From: an uncultured Pontibacter sp.
GTDB taxonomy: Bacteria > Bacteroidota > Bacteroidia > Cytophagales > Hymenobacteraceae
Assembly: GCF_947492645.1 (NCBI RefSeq)
Contig: NZ_CANLMZ010000013.1
Location: forward strand, 10,195 to 74,194
Reading direction: 5' to 3'
Length of the DNA: 64,000 nt
This document shows positions 35,504 to 55,428 of this stretch, one piece after another. Position numbers and translations under genes: made by a program. Position 1 is the first letter of the stretch. Every line of letters begins with the position of its first letter. Under the pieces are notes generated by a model. That model was not told the origin of the DNA, searched no databases, and saw nothing but the letters and a program-made list of their open reading frames with translations.

Positions 35504-36619
35504 ATGAAAACTATACAACTAATAAAAAGCCACATTGGTGGACGATCTGAGCAGCAAGACTCGAGCAATTCAGAGAGAGTACAAACAAAAATTGGCCGGC
35601 TACTTTTAATTGCCGATGGAATGGGTGGGCATAATGGAGGGAGTATAGCATCAAAAAAAGCTATTGAAGTTGTTTTAGATACTGTAAATAATTGTGAAGT
35701 CTCATTATCTGCATCAGATTGTTTAGTAAACAGTATTTGCAAGGCCAATGAAGCTATATATAATACTGCTCAAGAGGACCCAGCTTTAAAAGGTATGGGT
35801 ACAACCATAGTAGCTTTATTACTAACTGACGAATCTGCTATTCTTTGTCATGTAGGAGATAGCAGGATATATCATATAAGAGGTAATTCTATCCAGTTTA
35901 AGACTCAGGACCATTCTTGGGTAGGGGAGATGGTGAAAAATGGGCTTCTCAGCGAACAAGAAGCTCAACATCATGAAAAGTCAAATATTATAACTAGAGC
36001 TTTAGGCATAAGCTCGACTGTACAGGTTGACTCACATACAATAACAGACCTACAGGAAGAAGATATGTTTCTTCTATGCTCTGATGGAATAACTGGTGCT
36101 TTAGATGATGCTACGCTAGTTCAGGTACTCAATTCGAAAGAACATTTAGAGGATTGCTTAGACCACATTATTTCTGTTGTAGATAATGTAGGCCAATCTA
36201 AGGGCGGTGGACATGACAACATGACTATTGGTGTCTTGAAGATTAAGAAATTAGAGAAAAACCAAGCAAATCTTAAGACACGAATTATTCCAGAGCAGGA
36301 TGGTGGATCTTCACCTGAAAAGGCTGGCATTAACAAAAAGCTACTTGTAACACTCATTTTTTTAGCTGTTCTGTTAAGCTGTATCAGCTTCTACTTAGGG
36401 TACCAAAATGGAGCTCCTGAAGCCAGCCTGAATAATAATGAGCAGACTGATGAGAAGCGAAGTGAGTTAACTACGCCTGTACAAGATAAGGAAGATAATG
36501 ATCTGCCCACGGATAGAAAAGCGGTAGATAAAAATACCTCTCAACATGCCATTATACCTTCAAACGAAACACAAAAGACGACAGTTGAATCAAACCCAAC
36601 TGTAAATAATGCAGAGTAA
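35504..36619 (+). CDS. PP2C-family Ser/Thr protein phosphatase with C-terminal membrane anchor
   Basis: 371 aa with ADGMGGHNGGSIASKKA, GTTIVALL, HVGDSRIY, LCSDGITG and HDNMT. It has a hydrophobic helix LLVTLIFLAVLLSCISFYLGY and then a polar tail. Confidence 0.9.
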   Translation: MKTIQLIKSHIGGRSEQQDSSNSERVQTKIGRLLLIADGMGGHNGGSIASKKAIEVVLDTVNNCEVSLSASDCLVNSICKANEAIYNTAQEDPALKGMGTTIVALLLTDESAILCHVGDSRIYHIRGNSIQFKTQDHSWVGEMVKNGLLSEQEAQHHEKSNIITRALGISSTVQVDSHTITDLQEEDMFLLCSDGITGALDDATLVQVLNSKEHLEDCLDHIISVVDNVGQSKGGGHDNMTIGVLKIKKLEKNQANLKTRIIPEQDGGSSPEKAGINKKLLVTLIFLAVLLSCISFYLGYQNGAPEASLNNNEQTDEKRSELTTPVQDKEDNDLPTDRKAVDKNTSQHAIIPSNETQKTTVESNPTVNNAE

Positions 36620-36623
36620 TCTA

Positions 36624-38333
36624 ATGACAACAGACTTACTAATTCCTAATTATAACCTTCTGCGTGTAATAGGCGAAGGGGGCATGGCCACAGTGTACCT
36701 TGGCGAACACGCTCATCTGGGTAATAAGGTGGCTATCAAGGTGCTCAACTCCCACTACGCTCGGCACCAGCAGGTGCGAAGTCGCTTTTTGACGGAGGCC
36801 AAAGTGCTGGCCTCCTTTCAGCACCCGCACATTGTAGGCGTAAAAGACTTCTACGAAGAAGGCGATACGCTGGCTTTTGTCATGGATTATGTTGAAGGAC
36901 TTCCCCTTGATGAGTACCTCTACACTCACAATGCCCTGCGTGATCCGGCTAAAGCCATTGTTTTCTTTTCACAGATGCTGGATGCCTTCAGCTATGCCCA
37001 CCAAAAGGGGGTAGTGCACCGTGACATCAAGCCCGGCAATCTGATGGTAACACAGGACGGACAAGTGCGGGTGTTGGACTTTGGGATTGCTAAATTATTG
37101 GAAACGCAAGTAGGTGCGGCTAAGGCCACTGCCACCGGCACGATGCTAGGCACGCCGATGTACATGAGCCCGGAGCAGATCAACTTAAAGTCAGGCGAAA
37201 GCATTGACCACCGCAGTGACATCTACGCGTTAGGGGTGACGCTGCATCAGATTCTCTCAGGTCGTCCGCCCTACGATGCTGACACCCATTCAGGCTTTGA
37301 GATGCAGATGAAAATCATGACTGAGCCCCTGTCTCGCCTGGAACAAGTGCCCGAGTGGCTGCAGCAGGTTGTAGACAAGGCCACAGCTAAGATAAGAGAC
37401 GATCGTTTCCAGAGCTGCTCTGAATTCCTGCAAGCGCTTAGAAGAGAAACAGGCGCTAGCATAGTAGAGCAGCCAGTGTTCAAGCCTGTCTATAATGAAA
37501 CTCCTAGAGTGGAGGCTAAGACAGTTGTAAGTACGCCAGAGCAGCAGAAGACACATTTAACTGCTGTTCCTCAAGTAACACAAATACTTGAAAAGCCACA
37601 GACCACGCAGTTTATCGCCCCTGCCCAACCAACCAAAGCAGTAGAGCAGAAGGCGGGACTGGATCTAAATAAATTCGGTAAAGAGCCTGATAAAAAGAGT
37701 AACACTTTGTCTTGGGTCATAGCAGTTTTAGTTATAGTCATTGGTGGTATCATTTGGGGAGTTAGTGTAATGTCTGGTAGTTCATCTTATTCTGGTTCAG
37801 AGACTGTGATAAGTGATGAGACCTGGGTTGAAGAGACTATAATTGAAGATACAACAGCTATTGAAGTGGATGAAGTAAAAGTTGTTGAAGCTGAACCTTT
37901 TGTAGTTGGTAAATCAGTAGTTGAAAAAGCTTTCCTACAGTACTTACCTGACATTTCTGGAGGAAGAAACCTTTTGGAGTTAGAAGCTTACGAAGGGAAA
38001 AAATACAAAATTTTAGTTGGCGATTTAAATGGCGATGGCCTGCAGGATGGTATAGTTGATTACTCTCTTGAACCAACATTTGAAGATACTGGCGGAGGAA
38101 ATGCAATTGGCGCACTACCGGGGCTAGTAGCATTCATCAATACTGGTAATAAATTGACTATTGCTGATCATTCAGAAGAATTTAATTACATGTATAAAAT
38201 ATCGAAAATTAATAATGGGGTTATCTTTCTTGAAGGGTTCGAATATGCAGAGGATGACGCAAGGTGCTGTCCTTCAATTGAAGTAACTAAGAAGCTTGTA
38301 CTTCGAAATGATAAGTTAACATCATTAGATTAA
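36624..38333 (+). CDS. Hanks-type Ser/Thr protein kinase 1 (TM plus extracytoplasmic FG-GAP-like domain)
   Basis: GEGGMATVY, VAIKVL, HRDIKPGN, DFGIAK and MYMSPEQ, with TM helix WVIAVLVIVIGGIIWGV and a C-terminal domain containing VGDLNGDGLQDGIVD. The start is set to the ATG at 36624 (MTTDLLIPNY), as in the three paralogues. Confidence 0.9.
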   Translation: MTTDLLIPNYNLLRVIGEGGMATVYLGEHAHLGNKVAIKVLNSHYARHQQVRSRFLTEAKVLASFQHPHIVGVKDFYEEGDTLAFVMDYVEGLPLDEYLYTHNALRDPAKAIVFFSQMLDAFSYAHQKGVVHRDIKPGNLMVTQDGQVRVLDFGIAKLLETQVGAAKATATGTMLGTPMYMSPEQINLKSGESIDHRSDIYALGVTLHQILSGRPPYDADTHSGFEMQMKIMTEPLSRLEQVPEWLQQVVDKATAKIRDDRFQSCSEFLQALRRETGASIVEQPVFKPVYNETPRVEAKTVVSTPEQQKTHLTAVPQVTQILEKPQTTQFIAPAQPTKAVEQKAGLDLNKFGKEPDKKSNTLSWVIAVLVIVIGGIIWGVSVMSGSSSYSGSETVISDETWVEETIIEDTTAIEVDEVKVVEAEPFVVGKSVVEKAFLQYLPDISGGRNLLELEAYEGKKYKILVGDLNGDGLQDGIVDYSLEPTFEDTGGGNAIGALPGLVAFINTGNKLTIADHSEEFNYMYKISKINNGVIFLEGFEYAEDDARCCPSIEVTKKLVLRNDKLTSLD

Positions 38334-38382: not shown

Positions 38383-40035
38383 ATGACAACAGACTTACTG
38401 ATTCCTAACTATAACCTTCTTCGCGTGATAGGCGAAGGTGGCATGGCCACCGTGTATCTGGGCGAACATGCCAGGCTTGGTAACAAAGTAGCTATTAAAG
38501 TACTCAACTCCCACTACGCCCGCCACGAGCAGGTGCGCAGCCGCTTTTTGACCGAAGCGAAAGTGCTGGCTTCATTTCAACACCCGCACATTGTGGGGGT
38601 AAAAGACTTTTTTGAAGAAGGTGATGTGCTGGCCTTTGTGATGGATTATGTAGAAGGACTACCGCTGGATGAGTACCTCTACACCCACAACGCCTTGCGT
38701 GATCCAGCTAAAGCCATTGCCTTTTTTTCGCAGATACTCGATGCCTTCAGTTATGCGCACCAAAATGGAATAGTGCACCGCGACATCAAGCCTGGCAACC
38801 TGATGGTAACACAGGACGGACAAGTGCGCGTGTTAGACTTTGGCATCGCCAAGCTGCTGGAGACACCGGTAGGCGCGGCCAAGGCCACAGCTACCGGTAC
38901 CATGCTAGGTACACCCATGTACATGAGCCCGGAGCAGATCAATTTAAAGCCAGGCGAGAGCATCGACCACCGTAGTGACATCTATGCGCTGGGCGTAACG
39001 CTGCACCAGATTCTCTCCGGCCGTCCGCCTTATGATGCTGATACCCATTCGGGCTTTGAAATGCAGCTAAAGATTATGACTGAACCCCTGCCACGATTAG
39101 AACATGTGCCAAACTGGCTGCAGCAGGTGGTAGATAAAGCTACAGCTAAGAAAAGAGAAGATCGTTTCCAGAGCTGCTCTGAATTTCTGCAAGCACTGAA
39201 AAGAGAAATAGGTGCTAGCAAAGAAGAGCAGCCAGTGTTCAAGCCTGTCTACAACAAAGCTTCAAGAGTAGAAGCCAAGACAGTGGCAATTGCCCCAGAG
39301 CAGCAAAAAACACAGATTGCTTCAGTCCCACAAGCCACACAAATACTTGAAAAGCCACAGACCACGCAGTTTATCTCTCCGGCTGCGGAGACCAAAGTAG
39401 TAGAACAGAAGGCGGGTTTAGATATAAGTAAGTTAGGTAAAGAGCCGGAAGAAAAAAGTAAAGCAATTTTATGGATCGGTCTTGCCTTGTTGTTAACAGT
39501 CATCTGCGTTGTAATGTGGCGAGTTATGATGAATGATGAGGAGTTCACTATTCAAGATGAACCTTTTGTCGTATCAAAAACAGTTGTCGATGACTCTTTT
39601 GTACAATATCATCCAGATCCTAATTTGTACTCAAGTCATTTTAAAGAACTGCTGCCCAAAGGTTATGACATTGGTATTGGTGATATTAATAAAGACAGTT
39701 TAGAAGATGGAGTAATAGCATACAACTACAAACAATATGCTGGATATAATGACACAATTCCTTCGCGGTTATTTGGTGTCTTGGCTATGATTAATAACGG
39801 AAGTTATTTAGTAGAATATGATAATTCATCTGAACTTTTTGAAAACGGTAAATACATGTTTCTCTTAAAGAAGTTAGCAAAAGTTGAAAATGGAATAATT
39901 TTTTTAGAAGGAATTGAAGTTGATAATATGAGAGGTGATATAAGAACTGCAAAGCTTGAAGTTGTTTTACGCGATAACAAATTATTCCGCCAAAAATGGT
40001 CTACAAAAATTAGAGGTAATTGGAGAAATAGATAG
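38383..40035 (+). CDS. Hanks-type Ser/Thr protein kinase 2 (TM plus diverged extracytoplasmic domain)
   Basis: The kinase motifs are the same as in kinase 1. It has a TM helix LWIGLALLLTVICVVMW and a C-terminal domain with IGDINKDSLEDGVIA. Confidence 0.9.
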   Translation: MTTDLLIPNYNLLRVIGEGGMATVYLGEHARLGNKVAIKVLNSHYARHEQVRSRFLTEAKVLASFQHPHIVGVKDFFEEGDVLAFVMDYVEGLPLDEYLYTHNALRDPAKAIAFFSQILDAFSYAHQNGIVHRDIKPGNLMVTQDGQVRVLDFGIAKLLETPVGAAKATATGTMLGTPMYMSPEQINLKPGESIDHRSDIYALGVTLHQILSGRPPYDADTHSGFEMQLKIMTEPLPRLEHVPNWLQQVVDKATAKKREDRFQSCSEFLQALKREIGASKEEQPVFKPVYNKASRVEAKTVAIAPEQQKTQIASVPQATQILEKPQTTQFISPAAETKVVEQKAGLDISKLGKEPEEKSKAILWIGLALLLTVICVVMWRVMMNDEEFTIQDEPFVVSKTVVDDSFVQYHPDPNLYSSHFKELLPKGYDIGIGDINKDSLEDGVIAYNYKQYAGYNDTIPSRLFGVLAMINNGSYLVEYDNSSELFENGKYMFLLKKLAKVENGIIFLEGIEVDNMRGDIRTAKLEVVLRDNKLFRQKWSTKIRGNWRNR

Positions 40036-40159: not shown

Positions 40160-41611
40160 ATGACAACAGACTTACTGATTCCTAGCTATAATATTCTGCG
40201 CGTGATAGGTGAGGGGGGCATGGCAACCGTGTACCTGGGCGAGCACGCCAGGCTAGGCAACAAAGTAGCCATCAAAGTGCTTAACTCTCACTATGCCCGC
40301 CACGAGCAGGTGCGTGGCCGCTTTCTGACGGAAGCTAAAGTGCTGGCTTCATTTCTGCATCCGCACATTGTAGGGGTGAAAGACTTTTTTGAAGAAGGTG
40401 ATGTGCTGGCCTTTGTGATGGATTATGTAGAAGGACTACCGCTGGATGAGTACCTCTACACCCACAACGCCTTGCGTGATCCAGCTAAAGCCATTGCCTT
40501 TTTTTCGCAGATACTCGATGCCTTCAGTTATGCGCACCAAAATGGAATAGTGCACCGCGACATCAAGCCCGGCAACCTGATGGTAACACAGGACGGACAA
40601 GTGCGGGTATTGGACTTTGGGATTGCTAAACTTTTGGAAACACCGGTAGGCGCGGCCAAGGCCACAGCTACCGGTACCATGCTAGGCACACCCATGTACA
40701 TGAGCCCGGAGCAGATCAATTTAAAACCAGGAGAGAGCATCGACCACCGCAGCGACATCTACGCACTAGGGGTAACGTTGCACCAGATCCTTTCAGGTCG
40801 TCCGCCCTATGATGCTGATACCCACTCAGGCTTTGAGATGCAGATGAAGATCATGACTGAGCCCCTGCCTCGGTTAGAACAAGTGCCCGAGTGGTTGCAG
40901 CAGGTAGTAGACAAGGCCACAGCTAAGAAAAGAGAAGACCGCTTTCAGAACTGCTCGGAGTTTCTGCAGGCGCTCAAAATAGAAACTGGCAACTTTAATG
41001 TAACAGGCTCCAAGCAGGATGAGCAACCAGTGTTCAAGACTGTCTACAACGAAGCAGCAAAAGTAGAAGCCAAGACTGTGGTAAGTACGCCAAGGCAGCA
41101 GAAGACACAGATTGCTGCTGCGCCACAAGTCACGCAAATACTTGAAAAGCCTCAGACCACGCAGTTTATTCCTCCGGCACAGGCAACTAAAGTTGTTGAG
41201 TCAAAGCCAGATCAGCAAATTGAGGAAGAATCAAGTCCACTGTCAGAGAAGATATTACTAGGTGTACTTGCCTTATTTGGAGTAGCATGGCTTTTATTAC
41301 AATTTGTCGCAGATCTTAGAGCTGAATCCCTAAATGAAATCTATAATCTTTATGGAGGGTTACCAAATTATGTCCTAAATGTTTATTTATCAAATATATA
41401 TCCTTTTGATAGTCCAGCTGTTTACTATAGTACAGAAATTATATTCCTAACGGGTATAATATTCACGCTTGCTTATTCGGCAATTCCTTTTGTAAGTAAT
41501 GAACCTGATGAAAATAAGTATTGGGAGGCACTTAAACTTTTTGGTGCGCTACATTTTTTCGGCGGACCATTGATAAGTGGTGTTATTTTAATTTTAAAAA
41601 TTTTGATATAG
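40160..41611 (+). CDS. Hanks-type Ser/Thr protein kinase 3 (multi-pass membrane C-terminus)
   Basis: The kinase motifs are the same. The C-terminus is replaced by about 3-4 hydrophobic helices (ILLGVLALFGVAWLLLQF, IIFLTGIIFTLAYSAIPF, FGGPLISGVILILKILI). Confidence 0.9.
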   Translation: MTTDLLIPSYNILRVIGEGGMATVYLGEHARLGNKVAIKVLNSHYARHEQVRGRFLTEAKVLASFLHPHIVGVKDFFEEGDVLAFVMDYVEGLPLDEYLYTHNALRDPAKAIAFFSQILDAFSYAHQNGIVHRDIKPGNLMVTQDGQVRVLDFGIAKLLETPVGAAKATATGTMLGTPMYMSPEQINLKPGESIDHRSDIYALGVTLHQILSGRPPYDADTHSGFEMQMKIMTEPLPRLEQVPEWLQQVVDKATAKKREDRFQNCSEFLQALKIETGNFNVTGSKQDEQPVFKTVYNEAAKVEAKTVVSTPRQQKTQIAAAPQVTQILEKPQTTQFIPPAQATKVVESKPDQQIEEESSPLSEKILLGVLALFGVAWLLLQFVADLRAESLNEIYNLYGGLPNYVLNVYLSNIYPFDSPAVYYSTEIIFLTGIIFTLAYSAIPFVSNEPDENKYWEALKLFGALHFFGGPLISGVILILKILI

Positions 41612-41630
41612 ATTTTGATTGTAAACCTCT

Positions 41631-43355
41631 ATGACAACAGACTTACTAATTCCCAATTATAACATCCTTCGAACTATTGGTGAAGGTGGCATGGCCACCG
41701 TGTACTTAGGCGAGCACGCCCGGCTGGGCAACAAGGTAGCCATCAAAGTGCTTAACTCTCACTATGTCCGTCACGAGCAGGTACGTAGCCGCTTTCTAAC
41801 AGAAGCTAAAGTACTGGCTTCGTTTCAGCACTCGCACATTGTAGGCGTAAAAGACTTTTTTGAAGAAGGTGATGTGCTGGCTTTTGTCATGGATTATGTG
41901 GAAGGGCTTCCCTTAGACGAATACCTTTATACTCACAACGCCTTGCGTGACCCGTCTAAAGCCATTGCCTTTTTTTCGCAGATGCTCGACGCCTTCAGCT
42001 ACGCCCATCAGAAAGGAGTAGTGCACCGCGACATCAAGCCCGGCAACCTGATGGTAACACAAGACGGACAGGTTAGAGTATTGGACTTTGGGATTGCTAA
42101 ACTGCTAGAAACACCAGTAGGAGCAGCCAAGGCAACAGCTACAGGCACGATGCTAGGCACGCCGATGTATATGAGCCCAGAGCAGATCAACTTAAAGCCA
42201 GGCGAGAGCATCGATCACCGCAGCGATATTTATGCGCTGGGCGTGACGCTGCACCAGATCCTTTCAGGTCGTCCGCCCTATGATGCTGATACCCACTCAG
42301 GCTTTGAAATGCAGCTAAAGATCATGACTGAACCCCTGCCACGCCTAGAGCAGGTGCCCGAGTGGTTGCAGAAGGTGGTAGACAAAGCTACAGCCAAGAA
42401 AAGAGAAGATCGTTTTCAAAGCTGTAATGATTTTCTACAGGCACTCAAAAGAGAAACTCCATCTAGCAAAGTAGAGCAGCCAGTTTTTAAGCCTGTTTAT
42501 AATGAAACTCCTAGAGTGGAGGCTAAGACAGTGGTAAGTACGCCTGACCAACAGAAGACGCAAGTAGCTGCTGCAGCGCAGGCCACACAAATACTCGAAA
42601 AGCCACTAACTACTCAATTTTTCTCTCCCGCTGCCGCGACCAAAGCAGTAGAACAGAAGGCGGGACTGGATCTAAATAAATTCGGTAGAGAGCCTAAGAA
42701 AAAAAGTAATTCCTTATACTGGATCATAGCAATTTTAGTGGTAGTTATTGGTGGTTTTATTTGGGGATCTATTGCAATGTCTGGTAACTCACCTTATTCT
42801 GATTCAGAGACTATAATAAGTGATGAGACCTTGGTTGAAGAGACCATAATTGAAGATACAACAGCTATCGAAGTGGATACTACTGCCGTACCAGAGGAGG
42901 TAACTGCTGTAGAAGAGCCCTTTGTTGTAACTAAATCAGTTGTTGGAGCTGCTTTTGAGGATGTGATATTTTCCATTTCTGGTGGGTTTCAAGTTCACCA
43001 ACTGAGAAGAGTTCATGGTAATGGAAAGAGGTACAAAGCAATTGTAGGGGACATAAATGGCGATGGCCTGCAAGATGGTATAGTTGATTGTTCACTTATG
43101 ACTTTTTCTTCTACCCAAGAAGGAGTGGATGGTTCTTCAATTCTTGTTGCCTTTATTAATACAGGCAAGGCATTAGTCATGGTCGATTATTCAAGAGAAG
43201 AAATGAGTCAAGGCTTTGTTTTGCAGAATATTAAAAACGGAGTGATTAACCTTAAAGGAGAAATATACATAGCAGCAAATGAGTCACCATCTAAAACTAT
43301 AATAGTCAACAGACAAGTTATACTAGATAATAACAAACTCACAATTGTTGAATAG
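41631..43355 (+). CDS. Hanks-type Ser/Thr protein kinase 4 (TM plus FG-GAP-like domain related to kinase 1)
   Basis: The kinase motifs are the same. It has TM helix WIIAILVVVIGGFIWGS, and its C-terminal domain shares SETIISDETLVEETIIEDTTAIEVD and VGDINGDGLQDGIVD with kinase 1. Confidence 0.9.
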   Translation: MTTDLLIPNYNILRTIGEGGMATVYLGEHARLGNKVAIKVLNSHYVRHEQVRSRFLTEAKVLASFQHSHIVGVKDFFEEGDVLAFVMDYVEGLPLDEYLYTHNALRDPSKAIAFFSQMLDAFSYAHQKGVVHRDIKPGNLMVTQDGQVRVLDFGIAKLLETPVGAAKATATGTMLGTPMYMSPEQINLKPGESIDHRSDIYALGVTLHQILSGRPPYDADTHSGFEMQLKIMTEPLPRLEQVPEWLQKVVDKATAKKREDRFQSCNDFLQALKRETPSSKVEQPVFKPVYNETPRVEAKTVVSTPDQQKTQVAAAAQATQILEKPLTTQFFSPAAATKAVEQKAGLDLNKFGREPKKKSNSLYWIIAILVVVIGGFIWGSIAMSGNSPYSDSETIISDETLVEETIIEDTTAIEVDTTAVPEEVTAVEEPFVVTKSVVGAAFEDVIFSISGGFQVHQLRRVHGNGKRYKAIVGDINGDGLQDGIVDCSLMTFSSTQEGVDGSSILVAFINTGKALVMVDYSREEMSQGFVLQNIKNGVINLKGEIYIAANESPSKTIIVNRQVILDNNKLTIVE

Positions 43356-43430: not shown

Positions 43431-46400
43431 ATGAAAAAATATATTATAGGTCGCTTAGATGAGAGCGATATAGCCATAAACAACCCAACAGTATCAAGAA
43501 CTCATGCTGTTCTGATTTTATATCCAGATTCGACTTTTGAAATCCAAGATCAAAACTCTACTAATGGTGTAATGATCAATGGTAAAAAGATTGGCTCTTC
43601 TAAAGTAAATTTTGCTGATGAGATTAAGCTAGGCTCTCATAAAGTTGACTTGAACCAACTGTTACAGCTGTGTAATAAAAAAGAAGCTGAAAGAGCTGAA
43701 AGACTCCGTCAAGCAGAGCTACAAGTAGAAGCTAAAAAAAACCAAGACTTAGAGGCTGAGCTAAAGCAACGGGCTGAAGAAGCTGCTGCAGCGGAGAAGA
43801 AAAAAATAGAAATCGATGAACGAATAAAAGCTATTGCGCAAAAGCTACATGACGGAGAAAGTCTAACAGTACTGGCAGATGCGCAATTTTATAGTAGCTA
43901 TAAAAAAGAAGTAGATGCCTACGTTAATATTCTATATACCCAGGCTCAAAAAGCGGCTGCCATACTTCATCAGCAACAACAAGAAGAGCAAGCCAAGCAG
44001 TTTGAGATTGAAAAAAGAAAAAGAGAAGAAGATGAATTGTTGCTGTTTTTGAAAAAGCAGAAACAACAGCATGAAGTTGATCTATATTCAGCTCATTTAG
44101 ATAATGTGCTAGGTGCTGAACCAAGCTCAGCAGTATCAGATGAGTTTGATCTATATAATACGAAGCGAACTCTGCCCGCCTATCTAAAGGTCGGAGATTA
44201 TAAACTGCACGATTCGGTTTTCCCTTTTTGTATTCAATTTAATGATACAAAGAGAGGTATAACTTTATCTGCAGATGGCTCAAAATCAAATGATCTTTTA
44301 GAGAATATTATTTTCAGGCTTATAGCTTCTAATACTCCTAAAAAGACTCTTGTTAAAATAGTAGATACTGAGAAAAAGGGGTTGGCATTCTCAAATTTAG
44401 TGGCGCTTAGTCCAAAGGTTATTGGGAACGATGTATTGGATACGACTCAGGAAATTGATCAATTTTTCGATGAATCAATAAAGAAATCTGGTGAACTGGT
44501 ACTAAGTATATTAAAGAACCAGTACACCAACATAGCTACTTTTAACAAAGAGAATCCTGATATGGCATTGCCGGTAACTCTTTTGGCAATTTCTAACTTC
44601 CCATCAGGTTTCGATCGTGAGAGAACTAAGAAACTGCTTGAGCTGCTTAAAATTGGCAATAGGGTAGGGCTATATGCCTTCATTAGTATAAATAAACCTG
44701 CTCTGGAAGATTGGAAGACAAAGCACCAGGATCTGCAACCACTTGTAGACGAGTTATTCCAAAACTTCTTAACGATAGAGCAAAATACTGTTTCAGAATA
44801 TTCAACTGATCTATATCCTTCTGCAAACTATACTGTAAGCTATAACACATTACCACAAATACAGCATTTAATAAACAACATTAATGAAGAGGTAAACAAA
44901 GTAGTTACGCTTAAGGTAGATCTTAATAAGCGCTTGGGCGACTACTGGCAGGAAGACTCTTCTTATGGTGTGAAAATACCTGTTGGACAAACAGGAATGA
45001 ATGTACAACATTTCGAACTTGGTGGTGAAAGTAATGTTCATCATGCGCTTATAGGTGGTGCAACAGGTTTTGGTAAATCTGTGCTCTTACACAACATAAT
45101 TGTAAATGGAGCGCATCTCTATTCTCCAGACAATCTACAATTTATTTTACTTGACTATAAAGAGGGCACAGAATTCAAGCTATACTTAGACTTGCCACAT
45201 GCTAAGATTTTATCTATTGGTAGTGAGCGAGAATATGGTCTGAGTGTTTTCGAATACCTGGTAGAGGAAATTAAGAATAGGGGTGAAAAGTTTAGAGAGG
45301 CAGGAGTTGCTAACATTGGCGATTATCGGAAGGCTACTGGCGAAAGTATGCCACGGTTTTTAGTTGTGATAGATGAATTTCAGGTTTTGCTTTCAGGAAA
45401 GGACAATGTTAGTAACCAATCAAGTAGCCTGTTAGAAGATTTATCAAAGAGAGGTAGGTCATTTGGCATTAATCTTCTCCTATCATCTCAGACTTTAGCT
45501 GATGTGGAAGTTAGTACTTCTACAAAAAGCAACATAGGCTTAAGAATTGCGCTCAAATTAAACGAAAGCGATTGTGATAGAATTTTACATTACGAGAACA
45601 CTTTGCCATCTACCTTTAGTAGAGCAGGCCAAGCGGTTTATAATGATAGGAATGGTTTAAAAGTAGGTAATACAGAGTTTCAAGTTGCTTACTTATCTAA
45701 TGATGAGTTAAAAGAGAAGGTTACCAGAATTGCGGATGAGTACGCTAAAGTAGGTAGTTCTGCAGTAGAGAAGTTTGTTTATGATGGTACCATCAATGCA
45801 ACTGTTAACGATAACCTTGCTCTATCTGAAGCTATTGGAAATGATGCATTTGTACCGAATGATGTTATTTCAGATATATACATAGGTGAACCATCTTACC
45901 TCTCGAAGCAAAGTGTAAAAGTGAGGATAAAGAGAGAGCCACAGTCAAATGTTTTAGTCTTAGGACAGGATAGTGCTTCTGTAGTTTCTATTTTTTACAA
46001 TTCCTTCTATCAGCTAATAAAGCAGAGCTCTCCTGAGAGTGAGTTTTATCTATTCGATTTGTTTAATATAGATTCAGGCTTTAAGGGGCAGCTAGACGGA
46101 CTTAAGGATTTAGGCGATGTAAAGTTATTTAGCAGAAGCAGAAACATCGAGGAAGTTGTAGAGCGCGTTTACGAAGAATTGCAAAAGCGCATAAGTGATG
46201 ATGACGAAGGTAGTAAGAGAATTTGTATTGGTATTACAAATGCTCAATCAGCCAGAGAGCTCCGAAAAGCGGACTGGGATGTACCGCAGGTAACACAGCA
46301 ACTAATTAAGTTAATGAAAGATGGGCCAGATTTCGGAATACACATCTTTATGCATTACTACTCTTATGCGTCTTTCAGAGAAATTTTCGATACTAATGTT

Positions 46401-46559
46401 ATCAATGAGTTTGAAAACATCATTGCTTTAAAAGGTGATGATTCTACTGAAGTCTTTGACTTCTCTGCTAAGCCTGTTACTCAGGAAAGAATTGGCCAAA
46501 TAAAGTACCCACACGGGAAGTACAAAATTGAAGGTTTCAGAATTTACAATAAAATATAA
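43431..46559 (+). CDS. FHA domain + coiled coil + FtsK/SpoIIIE-family P-loop ATPase (EssC/EccC-like multi-module layout, no TM helix seen)
   Basis: 1042 aa. The FHA domain is at aa 1-75 (IGRLDESDIAINNPTVSRTHAVL...DQNSTNGVMINGKKI), followed by an E/K/A/Q-rich coiled coil at aa 80-215. Canonical Walker A IGGATGFGKS (nt 45054-45080) and Walker B RFLVVIDEF (nt 45357-45380) sit in FtsK context (HHALIGGATGFGKSVLLHNII...ILLDYKEG). Flanking modules have degenerate P-loops (LSADGSKSNDLL, VLVLGQDSASVV). Confidence 0.85.
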   Translation: MKKYIIGRLDESDIAINNPTVSRTHAVLILYPDSTFEIQDQNSTNGVMINGKKIGSSKVNFADEIKLGSHKVDLNQLLQLCNKKEAERAERLRQAELQVEAKKNQDLEAELKQRAEEAAAAEKKKIEIDERIKAIAQKLHDGESLTVLADAQFYSSYKKEVDAYVNILYTQAQKAAAILHQQQQEEQAKQFEIEKRKREEDELLLFLKKQKQQHEVDLYSAHLDNVLGAEPSSAVSDEFDLYNTKRTLPAYLKVGDYKLHDSVFPFCIQFNDTKRGITLSADGSKSNDLLENIIFRLIASNTPKKTLVKIVDTEKKGLAFSNLVALSPKVIGNDVLDTTQEIDQFFDESIKKSGELVLSILKNQYTNIATFNKENPDMALPVTLLAISNFPSGFDRERTKKLLELLKIGNRVGLYAFISINKPALEDWKTKHQDLQPLVDELFQNFLTIEQNTVSEYSTDLYPSANYTVSYNTLPQIQHLINNINEEVNKVVTLKVDLNKRLGDYWQEDSSYGVKIPVGQTGMNVQHFELGGESNVHHALIGGATGFGKSVLLHNIIVNGAHLYSPDNLQFILLDYKEGTEFKLYLDLPHAKILSIGSEREYGLSVFEYLVEEIKNRGEKFREAGVANIGDYRKATGESMPRFLVVIDEFQVLLSGKDNVSNQSSSLLEDLSKRGRSFGINLLLSSQTLADVEVSTSTKSNIGLRIALKLNESDCDRILHYENTLPSTFSRAGQAVYNDRNGLKVGNTEFQVAYLSNDELKEKVTRIADEYAKVGSSAVEKFVYDGTINATVNDNLALSEAIGNDAFVPNDVISDIYIGEPSYLSKQSVKVRIKREPQSNVLVLGQDSASVVSIFYNSFYQLIKQSSPESEFYLFDLFNIDSGFKGQLDGLKDLGDVKLFSRSRNIEEVVERVYEELQKRISDDDEGSKRICIGITNAQSARELRKADWDVPQVTQQLIKLMKDGPDFGIHIFMHYYSYASFREIFDTNVINEFENIIALKGDDSTEVFDFSAKPVTQERIGQIKYPHGKYKIEGFRIYNKI

Positions 46560-46581: not shown

Positions 46582-46869
46582 ATGTCACATATTTCCTTAT
46601 CACCTGCCGAGCTTGAGTCTATCATAACTAAGATCAGTAGTTTTAAACAAAACTTCGAAACTGATATTAAGAAAATCAAATCTTATTCTGAAGGCTTAAG
46701 TCAATCATGGAAAGATCCACAGTACCCTATCTTCAAGGGTGAGATCAATAGTTTCTACAACGTTTGTCACAATCAAATTGAGACCCTACATAGGTTGGAG
46801 TCAAACTTGAGATCTTTAAAGAAACAAAGTGAAGAAGCAATTAAAATTGCTAAGCAGTTTGGACGCTAG
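46582..46869 (+). CDS. WXG100/ESAT-6-like small helical protein (W-K-D variant)
   Basis: 95 aa from the ATG at 46582 (the ORF-track start 46528 overlaps the ATPase). It begins ISLSPAELESIITKISSF and has W43 in SQSWKDPQY at the centre of two predicted helices. This matches WXG100 proteins in length, in Trp position and in placement right after an FtsK/SpoIIIE ATPase. Confidence 0.55.
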   Translation: MSHISLSPAELESIITKISSFKQNFETDIKKIKSYSEGLSQSWKDPQYPIFKGEINSFYNVCHNQIETLHRLESNLRSLKKQSEEAIKIAKQFGR

Positions 46870-46923
46870 AATAAACATTACTTGTGAGTCTTTGGAATAA
46901 GAAGTAATACAAAGTACATAAAT

Positions 46924-46958
46924 AAAATAGCCAGGTATAAATTAGACCTGGCTATTTT
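46924..46958 (+). terminator. rho-independent terminator closing the kinase/ATPase block
   Basis: 13-bp perfect stem aaaatagccaggt / acctggctatttt with a 9-nt loop. The T-run is built into the 3' arm and continues as gttt. Confidence 0.8.
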
Positions 46959-47030
46959 GTTTACACGGTTTATATTAAACCTATGCATTTCTATTTATCC
47001 TTTCTTATAGTCCTTTAGGTAATATTAAAA

Positions 47031-47693
47031 ATGACAAAGAGGTTATACTTGATTATAATAGCTTCACTATTAATCTTTTTATCTATAAGTTATGGCTTAC
47101 ATTCTTTAGGGTATGTAAACATTCACTACACTAAAAATGATAACTTGTTTTTCGAAGGTAAAATAGCGCTTGTGCCCTTTGGAGAAATTAGAAACTCTGA
47201 AGTTCAGTATGTGAAGGCCCAGATTGAAAAGTTTTATGGATTTGAAGTTGATGTTTTAAATAGAGCTAAAATGCCAGCTAATGCTTTTTACAAGCCACGT
47301 AGCAGGTACAAGGCAAGTAAGGTATTAGATCATCTTATAGCCACTAAATCTGTAGAATATGATAAGGTTATTGCATTATCTAATGACGACATTTCTGCTA
47401 AAGTTAAAGGGTATAAAGACTGGGGAGTAATAGGACTCGCTTATCTGGGGAATTCAGCTTGCATTGTATCTACTTACAGGCTAGGAAAACAAAAAGTAAG
47501 TAGTGATAGATTTAAAAGTAGATTGGCAAAAGCTTCGTTGCATGAGCTAGGCCATACGTTGGGTTTGCCACACTGCGATAGAACTGATTACTGTTTTATG
47601 AATGATGCAAAAGGTAAAGTTTCAACGATTGATAGAGCAAATCTAACTTTATGTGATTACTGCCAAAAACAGATTCTGATCTATCAACTTTAA
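47031..47693 (+). CDS. archaemetzincin-type zinc metallopeptidase with N-terminal membrane anchor
   Basis: 220 aa. HELGHTLGLPHCDRTDYCFM-x17-CDYC fits the archaemetzincin signature HExxHxxGxxHC...CxM-x17-CxxC. The N-terminal hydrophobic helix is LYLIIIASLLIFLSISYGL. Confidence 0.8.
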   Translation: MTKRLYLIIIASLLIFLSISYGLHSLGYVNIHYTKNDNLFFEGKIALVPFGEIRNSEVQYVKAQIEKFYGFEVDVLNRAKMPANAFYKPRSRYKASKVLDHLIATKSVEYDKVIALSNDDISAKVKGYKDWGVIGLAYLGNSACIVSTYRLGKQKVSSDRFKSRLAKASLHELGHTLGLPHCDRTDYCFMNDAKGKVSTIDRANLTLCDYCQKQILIYQL

Positions 47694-47923: not shown

Positions 47924-48439
47924 TTGAAGAAGCTTATACTGTTCCTCGCACTATTACTAATAACATCATATTTAATGAAAGATTTTCTTCTGGAAAAGAG
48001 ATTATCTAGTGATGCTGTCATAGATAAACTTAGTATTGATAAATCTGAGAGAGAATTAAGTGTTTATTCTAAGGGCAAGCTACTTAAGACTTATTCAATA
48101 TCATTGGGTAAAGAGCCTATTGGAGATAAGCAGTTTGAAGGTGATAATAAAACTCCAGAAGGCTTATACTTTATAAACGGAAAGAACTCTCAAAGTAGTT
48201 ACTACAAAAATCTAGGCATTTCCTATCCTAACTCTGAGGATAGAAATGAAGCTAAGAAACTTAGTAAGTCAGCAGGCGGAGACATCAAGATTCATGGGTT
48301 GCCTAACAAATTGCCATTTCTTGGCCGATTGCACCGCATTACAGATTGGACTGCAGGATGTGTAGCAGTTACTAATGAAGAAATGGATGAGCTATTTAAT
48401 ACTGTAAAGATGGGTACACCTATTGAAATCAAGCCATAA
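47924..48439 (+). CDS. L,D-transpeptidase (YkuD/ErfK family)
   Basis: 171 aa with a TTG start and a signal/anchor helix. The catalytic block is IKIHGLPN...TAGCVAVTNEEMDELF (H-G...G-C). Confidence 0.8.
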   Translation: MKKLILFLALLLITSYLMKDFLLEKRLSSDAVIDKLSIDKSERELSVYSKGKLLKTYSISLGKEPIGDKQFEGDNKTPEGLYFINGKNSQSSYYKNLGISYPNSEDRNEAKKLSKSAGGDIKIHGLPNKLPFLGRLHRITDWTAGCVAVTNEEMDELFNTVKMGTPIEIKP

Positions 48440-48455: not shown

Positions 48456-49472
48456 ATGTACAGGTTTGTTGCGACTCTTATTGTAATAATGTTATTGAAT
48501 ACACAGAAGGTGTTTGCTAATAGTAACTATTCTGGTCTAAACAAAACTTTCAAGAAAATAGAGAATCTGTATTCTAGAAAAAAATATGAAAATGTTCTTA
48601 ATGAAATCAGACTATTAGAAAATCAAAGGTTTGGTAAAAATGGGAAATTAAAGTTCTCTTTAAAAGATGATGTAAGGTATTATCATTTGAAATTATCATC
48701 TAGGGTCCAACTGAAAAGATATGGATCTCTAAAAGAAACTGTTGCTCTTTATGAAAGGCTTCTTGCTTTAGATAGTACTAAGTACTACTCAGCAATGGAT
48801 CATTATGATACATTTAATGATTACCTAAAACAAGCATCGGAGAATTTGTTCAAAAAGAACCAAATCGCCTTTACCAGAAGATTAGTAAATATTTTGGCTT
48901 CACAAGGAGATACTACTTGGGTTTATAAAAAAGCTTATCCAGACAGGCAATCACTACAGTTTCTAGATAAAGAAAAGCTACATAAGTTCTTGAAAAACTA
49001 TGACTATACTAAAATAGATAGTATTGCTTTAGCCACTACAAAGCAAACAAGTATAGAAAACCAAGCTTGGGCTTTAACAAAAGACTTTACTTATGATTTT
49101 CAAAAAGTACGGGCCATATACATCTGGATAGTCAATAACATAGATTATGATCATACCTATAGAATTTACGATGAAGAACGTACTTTTAAGAGTAATACCG
49201 GCGTCTGTAGTGGGTTCAGCTACTTATTCAAAGAGATGTGTAATAAGGTCGGCCTAAAAGCTAAAAGTATTATTGGTGTTGCTGATAATGGGGTAGAAAT
49301 AGGAGGCCATGCTTGGAATTCAGTTGAAATTGAAGGCTACCCATTTTTAATTGAGAGTACCTGGGCATCTTGTGTTAAATATAAAACTGAGTACTACTAT
49401 CTGATCAGAGAAAAGGATTTAGCGAAAACTCACAAAGCGGATCCGTTAAAGAATAATTTACTGGAATATTAG
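48456..49472 (+). CDS. secreted transglutaminase-like protein, copy 2
   Basis: 338 aa, collinear with 31060..32070 over its full length (KKIENLYSRKKYENVLNEIRLLENQRFGKNGKLKFSLKDD...; TGVCSGFSYLFKEMC...GGHAWNSVE...IESTWASCVK). Confidence 0.7.
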   Translation: MYRFVATLIVIMLLNTQKVFANSNYSGLNKTFKKIENLYSRKKYENVLNEIRLLENQRFGKNGKLKFSLKDDVRYYHLKLSSRVQLKRYGSLKETVALYERLLALDSTKYYSAMDHYDTFNDYLKQASENLFKKNQIAFTRRLVNILASQGDTTWVYKKAYPDRQSLQFLDKEKLHKFLKNYDYTKIDSIALATTKQTSIENQAWALTKDFTYDFQKVRAIYIWIVNNIDYDHTYRIYDEERTFKSNTGVCSGFSYLFKEMCNKVGLKAKSIIGVADNGVEIGGHAWNSVEIEGYPFLIESTWASCVKYKTEYYYLIREKDLAKTHKADPLKNNLLEY

Positions 49473-52600: not shown

Positions 52601-52698
52601 GTCCAGGTTTCTCTTAGCCTTTCAGCTAGATCTTTAAATAACTGATTCTTAAATGAGGTGTTAAAGTAGGGGGCGTGGGAGAAAATATGTAAAGGCAT
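49666..52698 (-). CDS. NERD-like N-terminal domain fused to a very long TPR array
   Basis: 1010 aa. The N-terminus (LALVGNVYIHHKPYDAVLITNNTVCIIDFQDYGGRIEPRKTGNW) resembles the NERD nuclease-related domain with the E-x-K position changed to D-F-Q. From about aa 225 onwards there are about 20 or more 34-residue TPR-like units (A..Y..RA......G.Y..AI.DY..AI...P). Confidence 0.65.
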   Translation of the reverse strand: MPLHIFSHAPYFNTSFKNQLFKDLAERLRETWTDEDKFLALVGNVYIHHKPYDAVLITNNTVCIIDFQDYGGRIEPRKTGNWRAGKNVMVGNNPYISLDNNIKLLGQSLYQVRAINSIQGLVLFKKPIVYIQQTSPITDSWFHISDIQGIATDSNFIYCGLEKFTEDEIKKILVHLGVKREEVDDLIIATKAVEPESHLINDISIPPTPVNFSTPLVDDSIAKEALDNYTLGLMYIDFNFIKAIECFTKAIEIHSHYPAAYCARAYSLIKADRLDEALDDCSVAFEQDCENGLAVFFMGQILYKQEEYGDAIDYFYNASTYIEKTTTDDTFHYEWQNLVLLTGLCKQKIGSHKSAIDDLTEVINFQSLSNTLLYSALEHRAISHISEEKYVEAIKDLDRIIENCKDYQTPVYFNRGICYKNLGDYEAAINDFSQHISSNPEDVNGYCEKAFCKEIILKRHLEKNQPKHEEYCNNLIAEYSRIIELTPSKGYYLLNRAEIYLRLNQQQNALSDFDKLILLQPSRTKLYIKRAKIHEKLGNFSDAVNDLDIVLTRKPSEIEFYILRAELKVKLGKHKDAIKDYDKAIEYSPESAEYYIKRAEAKSSNWFRDLQGAINDYDKAIALTSDNWLLYIERAKVKAISGDISGMMEELNSNLVEQYYFRVRVELRAKYGDYLGAMEEYNTLIELSPNKIPRYLDLARFRMDISDYNGALEIIDWVINHEPSIFNYKLRAELRNKLGDHNGANEDYQLITLLADQSLGGLHIRAYAKFQLLDYEGAIEDCNEILELYPNNSYNSSVYRLRCLVKSKNGDYTGAIRDCDEANTLGYFNFEGYYHTVKAEIESEYGNYDEALKYYDLAIGNEDIFNGEYIFDKILLMINHDDFIGAIKECDRALKADPTIKYTYKQKAKAQLGIPDVSGAILNYSKAIELMPYDPEFYFLRAQTKELQGDNKGALNDYSMAIEIDPYEAEYYLKRGKLFNKISRYPEKRADYIKVLELKPYYTFEIGNIK

Positions 52699-53837: not shown

Positions 53838-53859
53838 ATATTTTTTAATATATTTGAGA

Positions 53860-53895: not shown

Positions 53896-53899
53896 TATC

Positions 53900-55423: not shown

Positions 55424-55428
55424 CCGAT

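Follow-up and report, generated by a model that had tools for sequence, protein, structure and literature searches.

Type VII secretion is regarded, together with its WXG100 proteins, as a feature of the Actinomycetota and Bacillota (PMC13492133; PMC11217815). In the T7SSa, the secretion pore is formed by EccC, which carries N-terminal transmembrane (TM) domains and occupies the middle of the complex, and the signal tails of WXG100 proteins bind and control the ATPase (PMC11217815). The Gram-positive T7SSc-e have a core of a WXG100 protein, an EssC-like ATPase and a membrane Ser/Thr kinase, its kinase domain cytoplasmic and a further domain outside (Garrett, Higginson and Palmer, 2024; PMC11217815); their ATPases are membrane-bound, and they have been described only in Bacillota and Actinomycetota. 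The FHA domain of the T7SSd/e EssC-like ATPase keeps the phosphothreonine (pThr)-binding consensus, a PPM/PP2C phosphatase belongs to the set in T7SSc/e, and control by threonine phosphorylation has been proposed for T7SSc-e (PMC11217815). Most T7SSc-e also have a YukD-like ubiquitin-fold protein, and T7SSc a vWA protein (PMC11217815). In type VI secretion, according to work cited in PMC11217815, a membrane kinase and a phosphatase govern how a secretion ATPase complex assembles, through contact between FHA and pThr.

A related arrangement comes from extended type III-A CoCoNuT loci, where a cassette of an EssC-like ATPase and WXG100 proteins stands in a type IV restriction context (Bell et al., 2024; PMC11090510). 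The ATPase of this cassette lacks TM segments; its N terminus forms a coiled coil, and among its three FtsK-like domains activity is predicted for the central domain only. WXG100-fold proteins are encoded by two genes, one of which keeps WxG while the other lacks it; there are flanking vWA genes, and the loci encode a coiled-coil nuclease and an McrBC-type core (PMC11090510). Bell et al. cite Anantharaman et al. (2012) for the cassette as a mobile, stand-alone module (PMC11090510). Cassettes of similar kind have already been noted computationally, so far only in genome surveys (Bell, 2024, PMC11090510; Garrett, 2024, PMC11217815).

Here, we describe a seven-gene operon in a 64,000-nucleotide stretch of DNA from an uncultured Pontibacter sp. 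(the window), which runs from a PP2C phosphatase gene through four membrane Ser/Thr kinase genes and a gene for an FHA-coiled-coil-ATPase to a last, small gene whose product carries W-x-D where WXG100 proteins have W-x-G (the WxD protein; Table 1). The Bacteroidota host assumed in a preliminary description of the sequence agrees with a GH92 protein encoded in the window, which is 92% identical to its Pontibacter vulgaris counterpart. The operon is located in a low-GC defence island, and the defence genes of the window include NERD-TPR (PDC-M16A), WYL, an AriA/NsnB-like ATPase and type I R-M. Most likely, the WxD protein serves as EsxA-like partner in a T7SS-like module switched by phosphorylation.

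Table 1. Position of the operon genes, domains and signals within the window.
Feature	Position	Strand	Evidence
PP2C-type Ser/Thr phosphatase, first gene of the operon	35504..36619	+	NF033484 E 1.5e-63; Pfam PP2C_2
Membrane Ser/Thr kinase 1	36609..38333	+	active-site motifs, TM helix
Membrane Ser/Thr kinase 2	38383..40035	+	
Membrane Ser/Thr kinase 3, C-terminal part hydrophobic	40160..41611	+	
Membrane Ser/Thr kinase 4	41631..43355	+	Pkinase E 1.3e-53
Soluble EssC/EccC-like ATPase, 1042 aa (FHA, coiled coil, three predicted FtsK-like domains)	43431..46559	+	Pfam, NCBIfam, PDB
FHA domain, aa 4-68	43440..43634	+	PF00498 E 1.1e-14
Long helical/coiled-coil segment, aa ~74-227	43650..44111	+	AF2 H74-140, H150-227, low confidence
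Putative degenerate N-terminal FtsK-like domain, D1-like, aa ~280-421	44268..44693	+	hhalign, weak
Central P-loop domain, predicted active, aa ~526-721	45006..45593	+	PF01580 E 3.5e-25; motif scan
Putative degenerate C-terminal FtsK-like domain, D3-like, aa ~829-1011	45915..46463	+	hhalign; Foldseek
WxD-type WXG100 protein, 95 aa	46582..46869	+	translation; PF06013 E 4.8e-5; AF2; Foldseek; family profile
Signature turn W43-K-D45-P-Q47-Y48-P-I-F51	46708..46734	+	30-sequence alignment; HMMER alignments
Hairpin terminator closing the operon	46922..46960	+	RNA folding

Translation of the last gene gives 95 aa and a stop, MSHISLSPAELESII...SQSWKDPQYPIFKG...KQFGR, with a single Trp, W43, within SWKDPQYP, and the gene follows the FHA and FtsK_SpoIIIE ATPase after 22 nt, both as first described. 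The start was placed at 46582 because the starts of the relatives all align with this ATG, and a TTG at 46528, which would give a 113-aa ORF, was rejected. AlphaFold2 run on the single sequence (mean pLDDT 89.3) predicts the two-helix hairpin that had been proposed, with helices at 8-42 and 48-93 and a loop at 43-47. The turn is Gly-less, as had been stated, in that Asp45 replaces the WxG glycine, but the protein as a whole is not free of glycine (G38, G53, G94). Downstream, the terminator hairpin has a dG of -19.7 kcal/mol (z = -6.3; 0/200 shuffles equally stable) and was missed by a consensus terminator scan because its loop is 9 nt long. A second WXG-like gene in the window was rejected, as hmmsearch with the family profile against all six-frame ORFs found only the one.

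Searched alone, the window protein matches PF06013 over its full length with 24.0 bits (cut-off 27.3) and TIGR03930 with 19.9 bits (cut-off 44.85), and phmmer with this single protein against the PDB gave nothing significant (best E 0.27), significant Esx matches being obtained only with the family profile. Such sub-threshold scores would suit an unrelated helical adaptor or coiled coil that has come to look like WXG100 by convergence or chance, as would the modest E-values of the structure search (8e-3), helical hairpins being easily predicted and matched; this reading was already disfavoured, and we consider it highly improbable. At the level of the family, all 15 members scanned match PF06013 (best E 1.9e-10), and the best 14 matches of the family profile in the PDB are all WXG100-type (13 Esx proteins and Helicobacter pylori HP0062), at E-values of 1e-7 to 3e-4, end to end and ungapped, with Bacillus anthracis EsxB, a T7SSc substrate, at the top. 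These alignments place W on W, D45 on the WxG glycine and F51 on the conserved Phe, and HMMER sets the Asp on the Gly of both the 'WAG' of B. anthracis EsxB and the 'WKG' of 12fa. Similarly, a Foldseek search of the PDB with the predicted model returned Esx/WXG100-type hairpins as its best 36 matches (TM 0.68-0.87), and identity to solved Esx proteins is ~11-20%. The likeness to WXG100 proposed from the small protein's sequence was thus recovered both by profile and by structure, and the Esx-like opening proposed with it is seen in an N-terminal 'M-x-x-I-x-h-x-P-x-x-L' common to the WxD protein and Esx. Against an unrelated adaptor stand the significance of the family-level profile matches, which are gap-free, full-length and specific to WXG100-type proteins, the retained W, +5 aromatic and +8 Phe positions, and the conserved EccC/EssC-like ATPase partner.

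The length of the window protein, and that of its relatives (84-98 aa), agrees with the ~100 residues of WXG100 proteins; the W-x-G motif itself is altered, with the Trp kept and aligned and the Gly changed to Asp in 30/30 members. Collectively, the sequence comparisons and the predicted model support the view that the window protein is a genuine but divergent member of the WXG100 superfamily, and we file it as a divergent subfamily because features other than the name-giving motif support homology. The new EsxA-like branch envisaged in the preliminary description stands as a distinct W-x-D subfamily, but it has not gone unseen and lacks only a name: PF06013 takes in its relatives, and an NCBI genome already carries the WXG100 annotation for one of them.

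A word-indexed protein search with the small protein returned only the protein itself, and exhaustive searching was needed to find relatives, of which phmmer recovered 14 at E<=1e-3 (best 2e-7) among 1.84 billion proteins. Across 30 sequences (alignment A4), W43 and D45 are the only invariant positions and Q47, Y48 and F51 are conserved in at least 90%, giving the family signature W-x-D-x-Q-Y-x-x-F, in which the Asp is usually followed by Pro-Gln-Tyr; a literature search found no paper pairing 'WXG100' with 'WXD'. Basic and aromatic residues mark the C-terminal tail of the family ([FY]-x-[RK]), and the YxxxD/E signal suggested earlier is absent from the C-terminal region. A second pattern, HxxxD/ExxhxxxH, reportedly presented as an export signal by Poulsen et al. 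in 2014, has no obvious fit by eye in the window protein. To our knowledge, neither of these signals is carried by every WXG100 protein.

A scan of genomes with a narrow alignment yielded one true locus (L015), while L017 proved a chance pattern match inside a 1660-aa surface protein and L016, which runs over an opposite-strand ORF of 370 aa, was taken to be spurious on ORF coordinates alone. Two short true loci (L018 and L019) came from a metagenome scan, in which two further candidates (L020 and L021; ORFs uninspected) were set aside as probable chance matches because each matches just 13 residues at and around the motif, at E-values of 2e-4 to 3e-4. Phage origin was rejected because a scan of viral contigs gave no match to the family. 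The hosts identified so far are all diderm, comprising Bacteroidota, a Methylotenera MAG and a Chthoniobacteraceae MAG.

The ATPase encoded upstream of the WxD gene matches FHA and FtsK_SpoIIIE in Pfam and, partially, EccCa/EssC in NCBIfam, and its best PDB sequence matches are EccC (4nh0, 6e-30), EccC5 and YukB. It is without a TM segment (maximum 19-residue Kyte-Doolittle hydropathy 1.27), the coiled-coil segment occupying the place of two TM helices (217-272) in the relatives P0003 and P0004. The canonical pThr-binding residues of the FHA domain, read from the sequence, are kept (G7-R8, S22-x-x-H25, N44-G45). A motif scan found a single Walker A (543 GATGFGKS) and a single Walker B (643 FLVVIDE), which lie in the central domain; SspH (5.5e-28) and mad8 (1.8e-21), both defence proteins, are further matches of this domain. 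For residues 216-505 and 746-1042, sequence comparison with the PDB gave no match and profile-profile comparison was needed: the D1-like region, which has neither Walker A nor B, aligns weakly with the central domain (hhalign probability 59%, E 9.6e-5), and the D3-like region, with both Walker motifs replaced, aligns at a probability of 85% (E 6.5e-6). Foldseek matched ~480 columns of EssC D2-D3 (4lya) and 863 columns of EccC (4nh0_B), using a low-confidence AF2 model of the whole ATPase (6-sequence alignment, pLDDT 46.6) that served just for families and aligned columns. This modest evidence suggests a three-domain ATPase in which only the central domain would be active, and the D3-like domain is a candidate docking site for the WxD protein.

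The pairing with an FtsK-like ATPase, on which the preliminary description had set store, is conserved: in 10/10 loci the WxD gene shares an operon with a member of one ATPase clade. It lies directly 3' of the ATPase gene in eight (the window, L006, L009, L012, L015, L022, L024 and L026), and in L027 and L028 it is part of the ATPase operon and was not counted as directly downstream. Identity to the window's ATPase is 33-47% in nine of the ten loci (E 1e-56 to 1e-72), and the ATPase of L027 is further removed (35% over 191 aa, E 1e-26). Clade members without a TM helix are those of the window, L006, L009, L022, L024, L026 and L028 together with P0005 and P0007, and P0003, P0004 and L027 are membrane-anchored. 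Similarly to the window, L022 combines an FHA-ATPase, a WxD protein and a kinase, and L009 has kinase, PP2C and FHA genes close by.

In addition to the FHA domain with its GR...SxxH...NG residues, the operon provides the Ser/Thr kinases and the PP2C phosphatase of a T7SSc-e-type set. From their motifs, the four kinases are predicted to be active; each has one TM helix, and near-identical catalytic heads are joined to differing outward-facing tails, in kinase 1 with intact active-site motifs, a TM helix at ~370 and a divergent C-terminal ectodomain. Their topology, a cytoplasmic kinase, one TM helix and an outside domain, is EssB/TscD-like, and the phosphatase also has one TM helix (aa 274-302).

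The best overall explanation, to which we assign a probability of about 0.55, is a divergent WXG100 hairpin working with an EssC/EccC-like ATPase under kinase, PP2C and FHA control. The four kinases would sense envelope signals via their differing tails and phosphorylate threonines, and PP2C would reset the phosphorylation state. By analogy with EssC-FHA and EssB, and with T7SSc-e, which contain a kinase and a phosphatase, the FHA domain may bring the soluble ATPase to the inner membrane by docking it on a platform of phosphorylated kinases, and this docking may trigger assembly of an ATPase hexamer. The WxD protein is probably a homodimer, because one copy alone is encoded; its basic/aromatic tail would bind the degenerate C-terminal ATPase domain, as EsxB does with EccC D3, and the protein could both license ATPase activity and be the first cargo passed to the membrane. 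The output of such a module may be interbacterial or anti-phage conflict.

Several observations speak against this explanation. The ATPase is TM-less, no pore-forming, YukD-like, core or outer-membrane part was found in the window, and no route across the two Bacteroidota membranes is visible. A Pfam scan of the region from 16 to 60 kb, which covered ORFs of 150 aa or longer and so those above YukD size, found no EssA/EssB/EsaA, EccB/D/E, MycP or YukD/EsaB-like protein, only the membrane kinases, EssB/TscD-like in topology, and the membrane PP2C being present. In addition, the operon encodes no toxin or LXG-type cargo, YxxxD/E is absent in 30/30 members and HxxxD/ExxhxxxH is not obvious. The same absences weigh against a complete diderm type VII-like secretion system that exports the WxD protein, its membrane parts being the kinase TM helices or genes elsewhere. 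The T7SSc-e-like component set, the EssB/TscD-like topology of the kinases and proteins of ~400 aa with C-terminal TM helices encoded 3' of the WxD gene in L015, L024 and L026 are consistent with such a system. We nevertheless think it improbable, in that the ATPase has no TM helix, whereas the T7SSa EccC forms the pore (PMC11217815), no outer-membrane conduit, YukD-like protein or cargo was found in the window, and the accessory genes vary between loci, leaving no conserved channel candidate.

The defence island and the related cassettes in restriction-like loci fit an intracellular role equally. As an intracellular defence or conflict module, the locus would secrete nothing; the WxD protein would be an adaptor or regulatory subunit of a cytoplasmic EssC-like motor that, once the kinases have signalled, acts on nucleic acid or protein of an invader. 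In favour of this reading, TM helices are missing from most ATPases of the clade, the central domain matches SspH and mad8, the pair in L006 and L012 comes after an FtsK with a DNA-binding gamma domain, and defence-type neighbours are found not only in the low-GC island of the window but also in L006 (a STAND NTPase and HsdM) and L009 (RmuC and WYL); the same kind of cassette, moreover, occurs in CoCoNuT type IV restriction loci (PMC11090510). On balance we hold this reading to be possible but unlikely, given that all characterised WXG100 proteins are T7SS components or substrates (PMC11217815), that Gln_amidase toxin-like genes with small neighbour genes in the related loci L003, L005 and L027 form an exported-effector pattern, and that the P0003, P0004 and L027 ATPases are membrane-anchored. 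That defence genes lie nearby is circumstantial evidence, and the small protein matched no PADLOC model.

A more tentative proposal is that the WxD protein and its membrane-less EssC-like ATPase form a distinct, horizontally spread machine, in which the hairpin, instead of being a secreted antigen, would trigger a kinase-gated cytoplasmic motor allosterically or be its payload. Hosts of the WxD/ATPase pair belong so far only to diderm phyla (Bacteroidota, Verrucomicrobiota and a Methylotenera MAG). Under this proposal, the machine might for example serve in abortive infection or envelope stress by forcing the hairpin or a partner into the inner membrane. Were the proposal true, WXG100 proteins would ancestrally have served ATPase control, not secretion.

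To the cassettes already noted, the locus adds a compact form of seven genes from a Bacteroidota lineage that can be cultured, with an anchor-less motor, a conserved Asp where the family name has Gly and an explicit set of switch parts (kinase, phosphatase and FHA). The locus offers a tractable system for asking what a WXG100 hairpin does to EssC-type ATPases without a channel, and it bears on whether EssC/WXG100 cassettes of defence islands are secretion systems or immune modules. For annotators, W-x-D-x-Q-Y-x-x-F beside an EssC-like ATPase is a signature for proteins that fall under current family cut-offs.

Compared with known systems, the locus resembles type VI secretion in its proposed switch logic; the machines are unrelated and no T6SS genes are present. 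Like T7SSc-e, the window combines a WXG100-type protein, an FHA-EssC-like ATPase, a membrane kinase and a PPM phosphatase; unlike them, it has a soluble ATPase with a single predicted active domain, four kinase paralogues, a Bacteroidota host and W-x-D, and neither YukD nor vWA was found in the window (Pfam, ORFs >=150 aa). With the CoCoNuT cassette, compared by description, it shares a TM-less, putatively three-domain ATPase, a WXG100-fold partner without WxG and a defence island. It differs in that the FHA domain precedes the coiled coil, one WXG100-like gene takes the place of two, and four kinases and PP2C share the operon; no vWA, coiled-coil nuclease or McrBC-type genes were found among the scanned window neighbours. 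The antiparallel two-helix hairpin of ~95 aa is common to the WxD protein and WXG100/ESAT-6-like proteins (PF06013; B. anthracis EsxB, 4J41/4J10/4IYH; S. agalactiae SAG1039/EsxA, 3GVM). The WxD protein is also like EsxB and EsxA in the Trp at the turn, the aromatic at +5 and the Phe at +8; its gene likewise lies beside one for an FtsK/SpoIIIE-type ATPase and is single, as with Firmicute EsxA homodimers. The WxD family departs from WXG100 proteins in its invariant Asp for Gly, its basic/aromatic tail without YxxxD/E and its diderm hosts. A Gram-negative WXG100-like hairpin is nevertheless known in H. pylori HP0062 (2GTS, 3FX7), which is matched by the WxD profile at E ~2e-6 and by the fold search.

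The 95-aa protein that begins 22 nt after the end of the 1042-aa FHA and FtsK_SpoIIIE ORF belongs to a WXG100 subfamily that lacks the WxG glycine and is linked, in this Bacteroidota genome, to an EssC-like motor with no membrane anchor and probably under kinase control. The frame of the protein closes with a stop codon. Its single tryptophan (W43) within SWKDPQYP and its two helices bear out the preliminary description; the single-sequence AlphaFold2 model (mean pLDDT 89) places the helices at 8-42 and 48-93, with a five-residue turn between them. The Gly-less turn proposed in that description holds for the WxG glycine position, which is replaced, but the protein is not glycine-free elsewhere. 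A longer TTG-started frame was rejected because the relatives all begin at the ATG position, 46582. A stable hairpin (dG -19.7 kcal/mol, z = -6.3) marks the end of the transcription unit.

Taken alone, the W-x-D (hereafter WxD) protein aligns with PF06013 along its full length (residues 4-82 to model positions 2-80 of 86; E 4.8e-5) at 24.0 bits, under the 27.3-bit gathering score, and scores 19.9 bits against TIGR03930 (cut-off 44.85). A word-indexed protein search returned only the self-match, and an exhaustive phmmer search of 1.84 billion representatives recovered 14 relatives of 84-98 aa (E 2e-7 to 9e-4). PF06013 was matched by 15/15 WxD sequences scanned singly (best 1.9e-10), and the best 14 PDB matches of a 15-sequence family profile are all WXG100-type (13 Esx proteins and H. 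pylori HP0062; E 1e-7 to 3e-4). The PDB matches include B. anthracis EsxB, S. agalactiae SAG1039, and G. thermodenitrificans and S. aureus EsxA, with alignments running end to end without gaps, in which W43 and D45 pair with the Trp and Gly of WxG, and F51 with the conserved Phe. Foldseek comparison of the model with the PDB likewise ranks Esx/WXG100-type hairpins in the first 36 places (TM 0.68-0.87). Together these matches bear out the proposed membership in the EsxA-like superfamily and make the alternative of an unrelated helical adaptor very unlikely.

To delineate the subfamily, we aligned 30 members, comprising relatives from the protein searches and small ORFs taken from three related loci (L015, L028 and L003). 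Only W43 and D45 are invariant; Q47, Y48, F51 and L76 are conserved in at least 90% of members and P46 in 19 of 30, giving the signature W-x-D-[P]-Q-Y-x-x-F, and in none of the 30 is the WxG position occupied by Gly. Structurally, Asp-Pro may plausibly cap the N-terminus of helix 2, replacing Gly in turn formation. The C-terminal YxxxD/E motif that the preliminary description had in view is absent from all 30; most tails instead carry [FY]-x-[RK] followed by basic residues. Our literature search found no paper containing both WXG100 and WXD.

Conservation beside FtsK-like ATPases, the other expectation, was borne out: at all loci with enough flanking DNA (ten, the window included), one operon encodes both an FtsK/SpoIIIE-type ATPase and the WxD protein. 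The WxD gene is the next one 3' of the ATPase gene, at spacings between a slight overlap and ~50 nt, in the window, L006 (a Methylotenera MAG), L009, L012, L015 (a Chthoniobacteraceae MAG), L022, L024 and L026; in L027 one small gene intervenes, and in L028 the WxD gene lies ~1.8 kb upstream instead. Across their catalytic regions, the ATPases of nine of these loci share 33-47% identity with the window enzyme (E 1e-56 to 1e-72); that of L027 is more divergent (35% over 191 aa, E 1e-26). The N-termini differ (the window and L022 enzymes have FHA, that of L026 a biotin/lipoyl domain and the others neither), as do the accessory genes: ~400-aa proteins with C-terminal hydrophobic helices follow the pair in L015, L024 and L026; L022 shows the window's combination of FHA-ATPase, WxD and kinase, plus two extra FHA proteins; and kinase, PP2C and FHA genes lie close by in L009. 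W-x-D proteins are encoded as pairs in L003 and L028; the lone copy in the window suggests a homodimer.

Some loci have further neighbours. Upstream of the pair, L006 and L012 encode a separate FtsK homologue of 600 aa that has retained its DNA-binding gamma domain (with an N-terminal transmembrane helix as well in L006), suggesting a connection with DNA handling or with the transfer of mobile elements. In L003/L004, L005 and L027, more distant ATPase relatives neighbour small helical WXG-like proteins arranged in pairs or series, as well as Gln_amidase (papain-fold toxin) proteins with small ORFs after them; ubiquitin-like conjugation genes (E1 (ThiF)/E2/JAB in L003, ThiF alone in L027) and Hsp70/GrpE/DnaJ genes (L005) are also present. 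The L028 element begins with a phage-type integrase and has many ankyrin- and Sel1-repeat proteins; its WxD protein was found on 24 contigs.

By sequence, the best matches of the window ATPase are T7SS motors: T. curvata EccC (4nh0, 6e-30), EccC5 and YukB lead in the PDB, against only 6e-9 for FtsK itself, and NCBIfam gives partial matches to EccCa, EssC and EccCb. The enzyme lacks transmembrane segments (its hydropathy peaks at 1.27), and its only Walker A and Walker B motifs are GATGFGKS (543) and FLVVIDE (643). Profile-profile comparison identifies residues ~829-1011 (85% probability, E 6.5e-6) and, more weakly, ~280-421 (59%, E 9.6e-5) as degenerate copies of the central domain, both devoid of Walker motifs. 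A fold search with the full-length AF2 model, itself poor (pLDDT 46.6), aligned ~480 columns on EssC D2-D3 and 863 on three-domain EccC. Residues 74-227 are predicted long helices, where the closest full-length relatives, P0003 and P0004 (28% identity over ~780 aa), have two transmembrane helices (residues 217-272); their contig carries planctomycete-type PSCyt2/PSD1 genes, with no WXG100 gene annotated nearby. The FHA domain retains the pThr-binding residues GR, SxxH and NG.

Upstream, the four kinases have nearly uniform catalytic domains (protein identity 92-95%, DNA identity 82-89%), with all active-site motifs intact and a transmembrane helix in each near residue 365-385, while their C-terminal outside domains are just 21-55% identical; the arrangement resembles an array of diversified sensors sharing one conserved kinase head. 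The third C-terminus is hydrophobic and probably multi-pass rather than globular. We propose that the array, reset by PP2C, would recruit the soluble ATPase to a membrane kinase platform through FHA-pThr docking and so promote hexamer assembly, and that the tail of the WxD homodimer may bind the degenerate C-terminal ATPase domain, like EsxB on EccC D3, acting as activator and first cargo. We give this whole reading a probability of roughly 0.55.

A GH92 protein of the window shares 92% identity with its P. vulgaris counterpart, which places the host among the Hymenobacteraceae as a Pontibacter-like bacterium. The operon sits in a low-GC island (~26-56 kb; 32-38% versus ~45% for the core), within which the kinase genes (41-45%) differ from the ATPase and WxD genes (34-37%), hinting at a mosaic origin. 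The NERD-TPR, WYL and AriA/NsnB-like genes tabulated below also belong to this island. This defence-island setting makes a purely intracellular conflict role a serious rival to our reading, although a less probable one. A complete diderm secretion system is less likely still: the window module encodes no channel, outer-membrane conduit or toxin, and no vWA, YukD-like, EssA/EssB/EsaA or EccB/D/E-like protein was found among the scanned neighbours (ORFs of at least 150 aa, 16-60 kb).

Features of the window and of related loci
Locus	Coordinates	Strand	Feature	Remarks
Window	23321-26611		FtsZ/tubulin-family protein, 173-aa ORF, histone-deacetylase-family and pentapeptide-repeat proteins	island edge; FtsZ/tubulin-family protein first, short (309 aa)
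Window	27150-31034, 32184-34687		ORFs of 364, 271, 153 and 389 aa, then 603-aa DUF2779 protein and 201-aa membrane ORF	in island, just upstream of PP2C gene; first four without Pfam match
Window	31060-32070; 48456-49472		two transglutaminase-core paralogues	flank kinase/ATPase operon; 50% identical over 300 aa
Window	35504-36619	+	PP2C phosphatase	one transmembrane helix; upstream of ATPase
Window	36609-43355	+	four tandem Ser/Thr kinase paralogues	upstream of ATPase
Window	43431-46559		FHA and FtsK_SpoIIIE ATPase	
Window	46582-46869	+	WxD protein	
Window	46922-46960		stable hairpin	
Window	47031-47693		M54-like metallopeptidase	downstream of operon; N-terminal hydrophobic segment
Window	47924-48439		YkuD L,D-transpeptidase	downstream of operon; N-terminal hydrophobic segment
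Window	49666-56436		defence-type genes by the operon	
Window	within 49666-56436		NERD and TPR protein, 1010 aa	PADLOC PDC-M16A-like
Window	52812-53837		WYL-domain regulator	
Window	53900-55423		AAA_15/AriA/NsnB-like ATPase	
Window	55429-56436		335-aa partner of that ATPase	no family match
Window	56506-63851		type I restriction-modification system	adjoins island defence genes
Window	56506-58224		HsdM	
Window	58231-59535		HsdS	
Window	59576-60817		413-aa ORF	between hsdS and hsdR
Window	60873-63851		HsdR	
L001/L002	8001-11909		P0004	
L003/L004	2557-13348		distant ATPase relative, toxin-like neighbours	
L005	3316-8618		distant ATPase relative, toxin-like neighbours	
L027	5627-15304		distant ATPase relative, toxin-like neighbours	
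L006	6197-7999		FtsK homologue	before EssC-like ATPase and WxD pair
L012	6263-8044		FtsK homologue	before EssC-like ATPase and WxD pair
L028	4382-16398		W-x-D pair and 845-aa ATPase	

The general class to which this protein and its motor belong has been noticed computationally before, never by experiment, and a 2026 review still places T7SS primarily in Actinomycetota and Bacillota. EssC-like ATPases that lack transmembrane helices have been described in defence loci, with N-terminal coiled coils and three domains of which only the central is active, paired with WXG100-fold proteins, one without WxG (Bell et al., PMC11090510); that work, citing Anantharaman et al. 2012, regards the EssC-like/WXG100 operon as probably a mobile stand-alone module. 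Of the variants T7SSc-j defined in Gram-positive bacteria, three (T7SSc, d and e) bring together a membrane Ser/Thr kinase, a WXG100 protein and an EssC-like ATPase, with an intact pThr consensus in the ATPase FHA in T7SSd and e and a PPM phosphatase in T7SSc and e; assembly of such systems was proposed to be phospho-regulated, and the ATPase is bound and controlled by WXG100 signal tails (Garrett, Higginson and Palmer, PMC11217815). A T7SSc is present in B. anthracis, and among solved structures it is the EsxB of this species that matches the WxD profile best.
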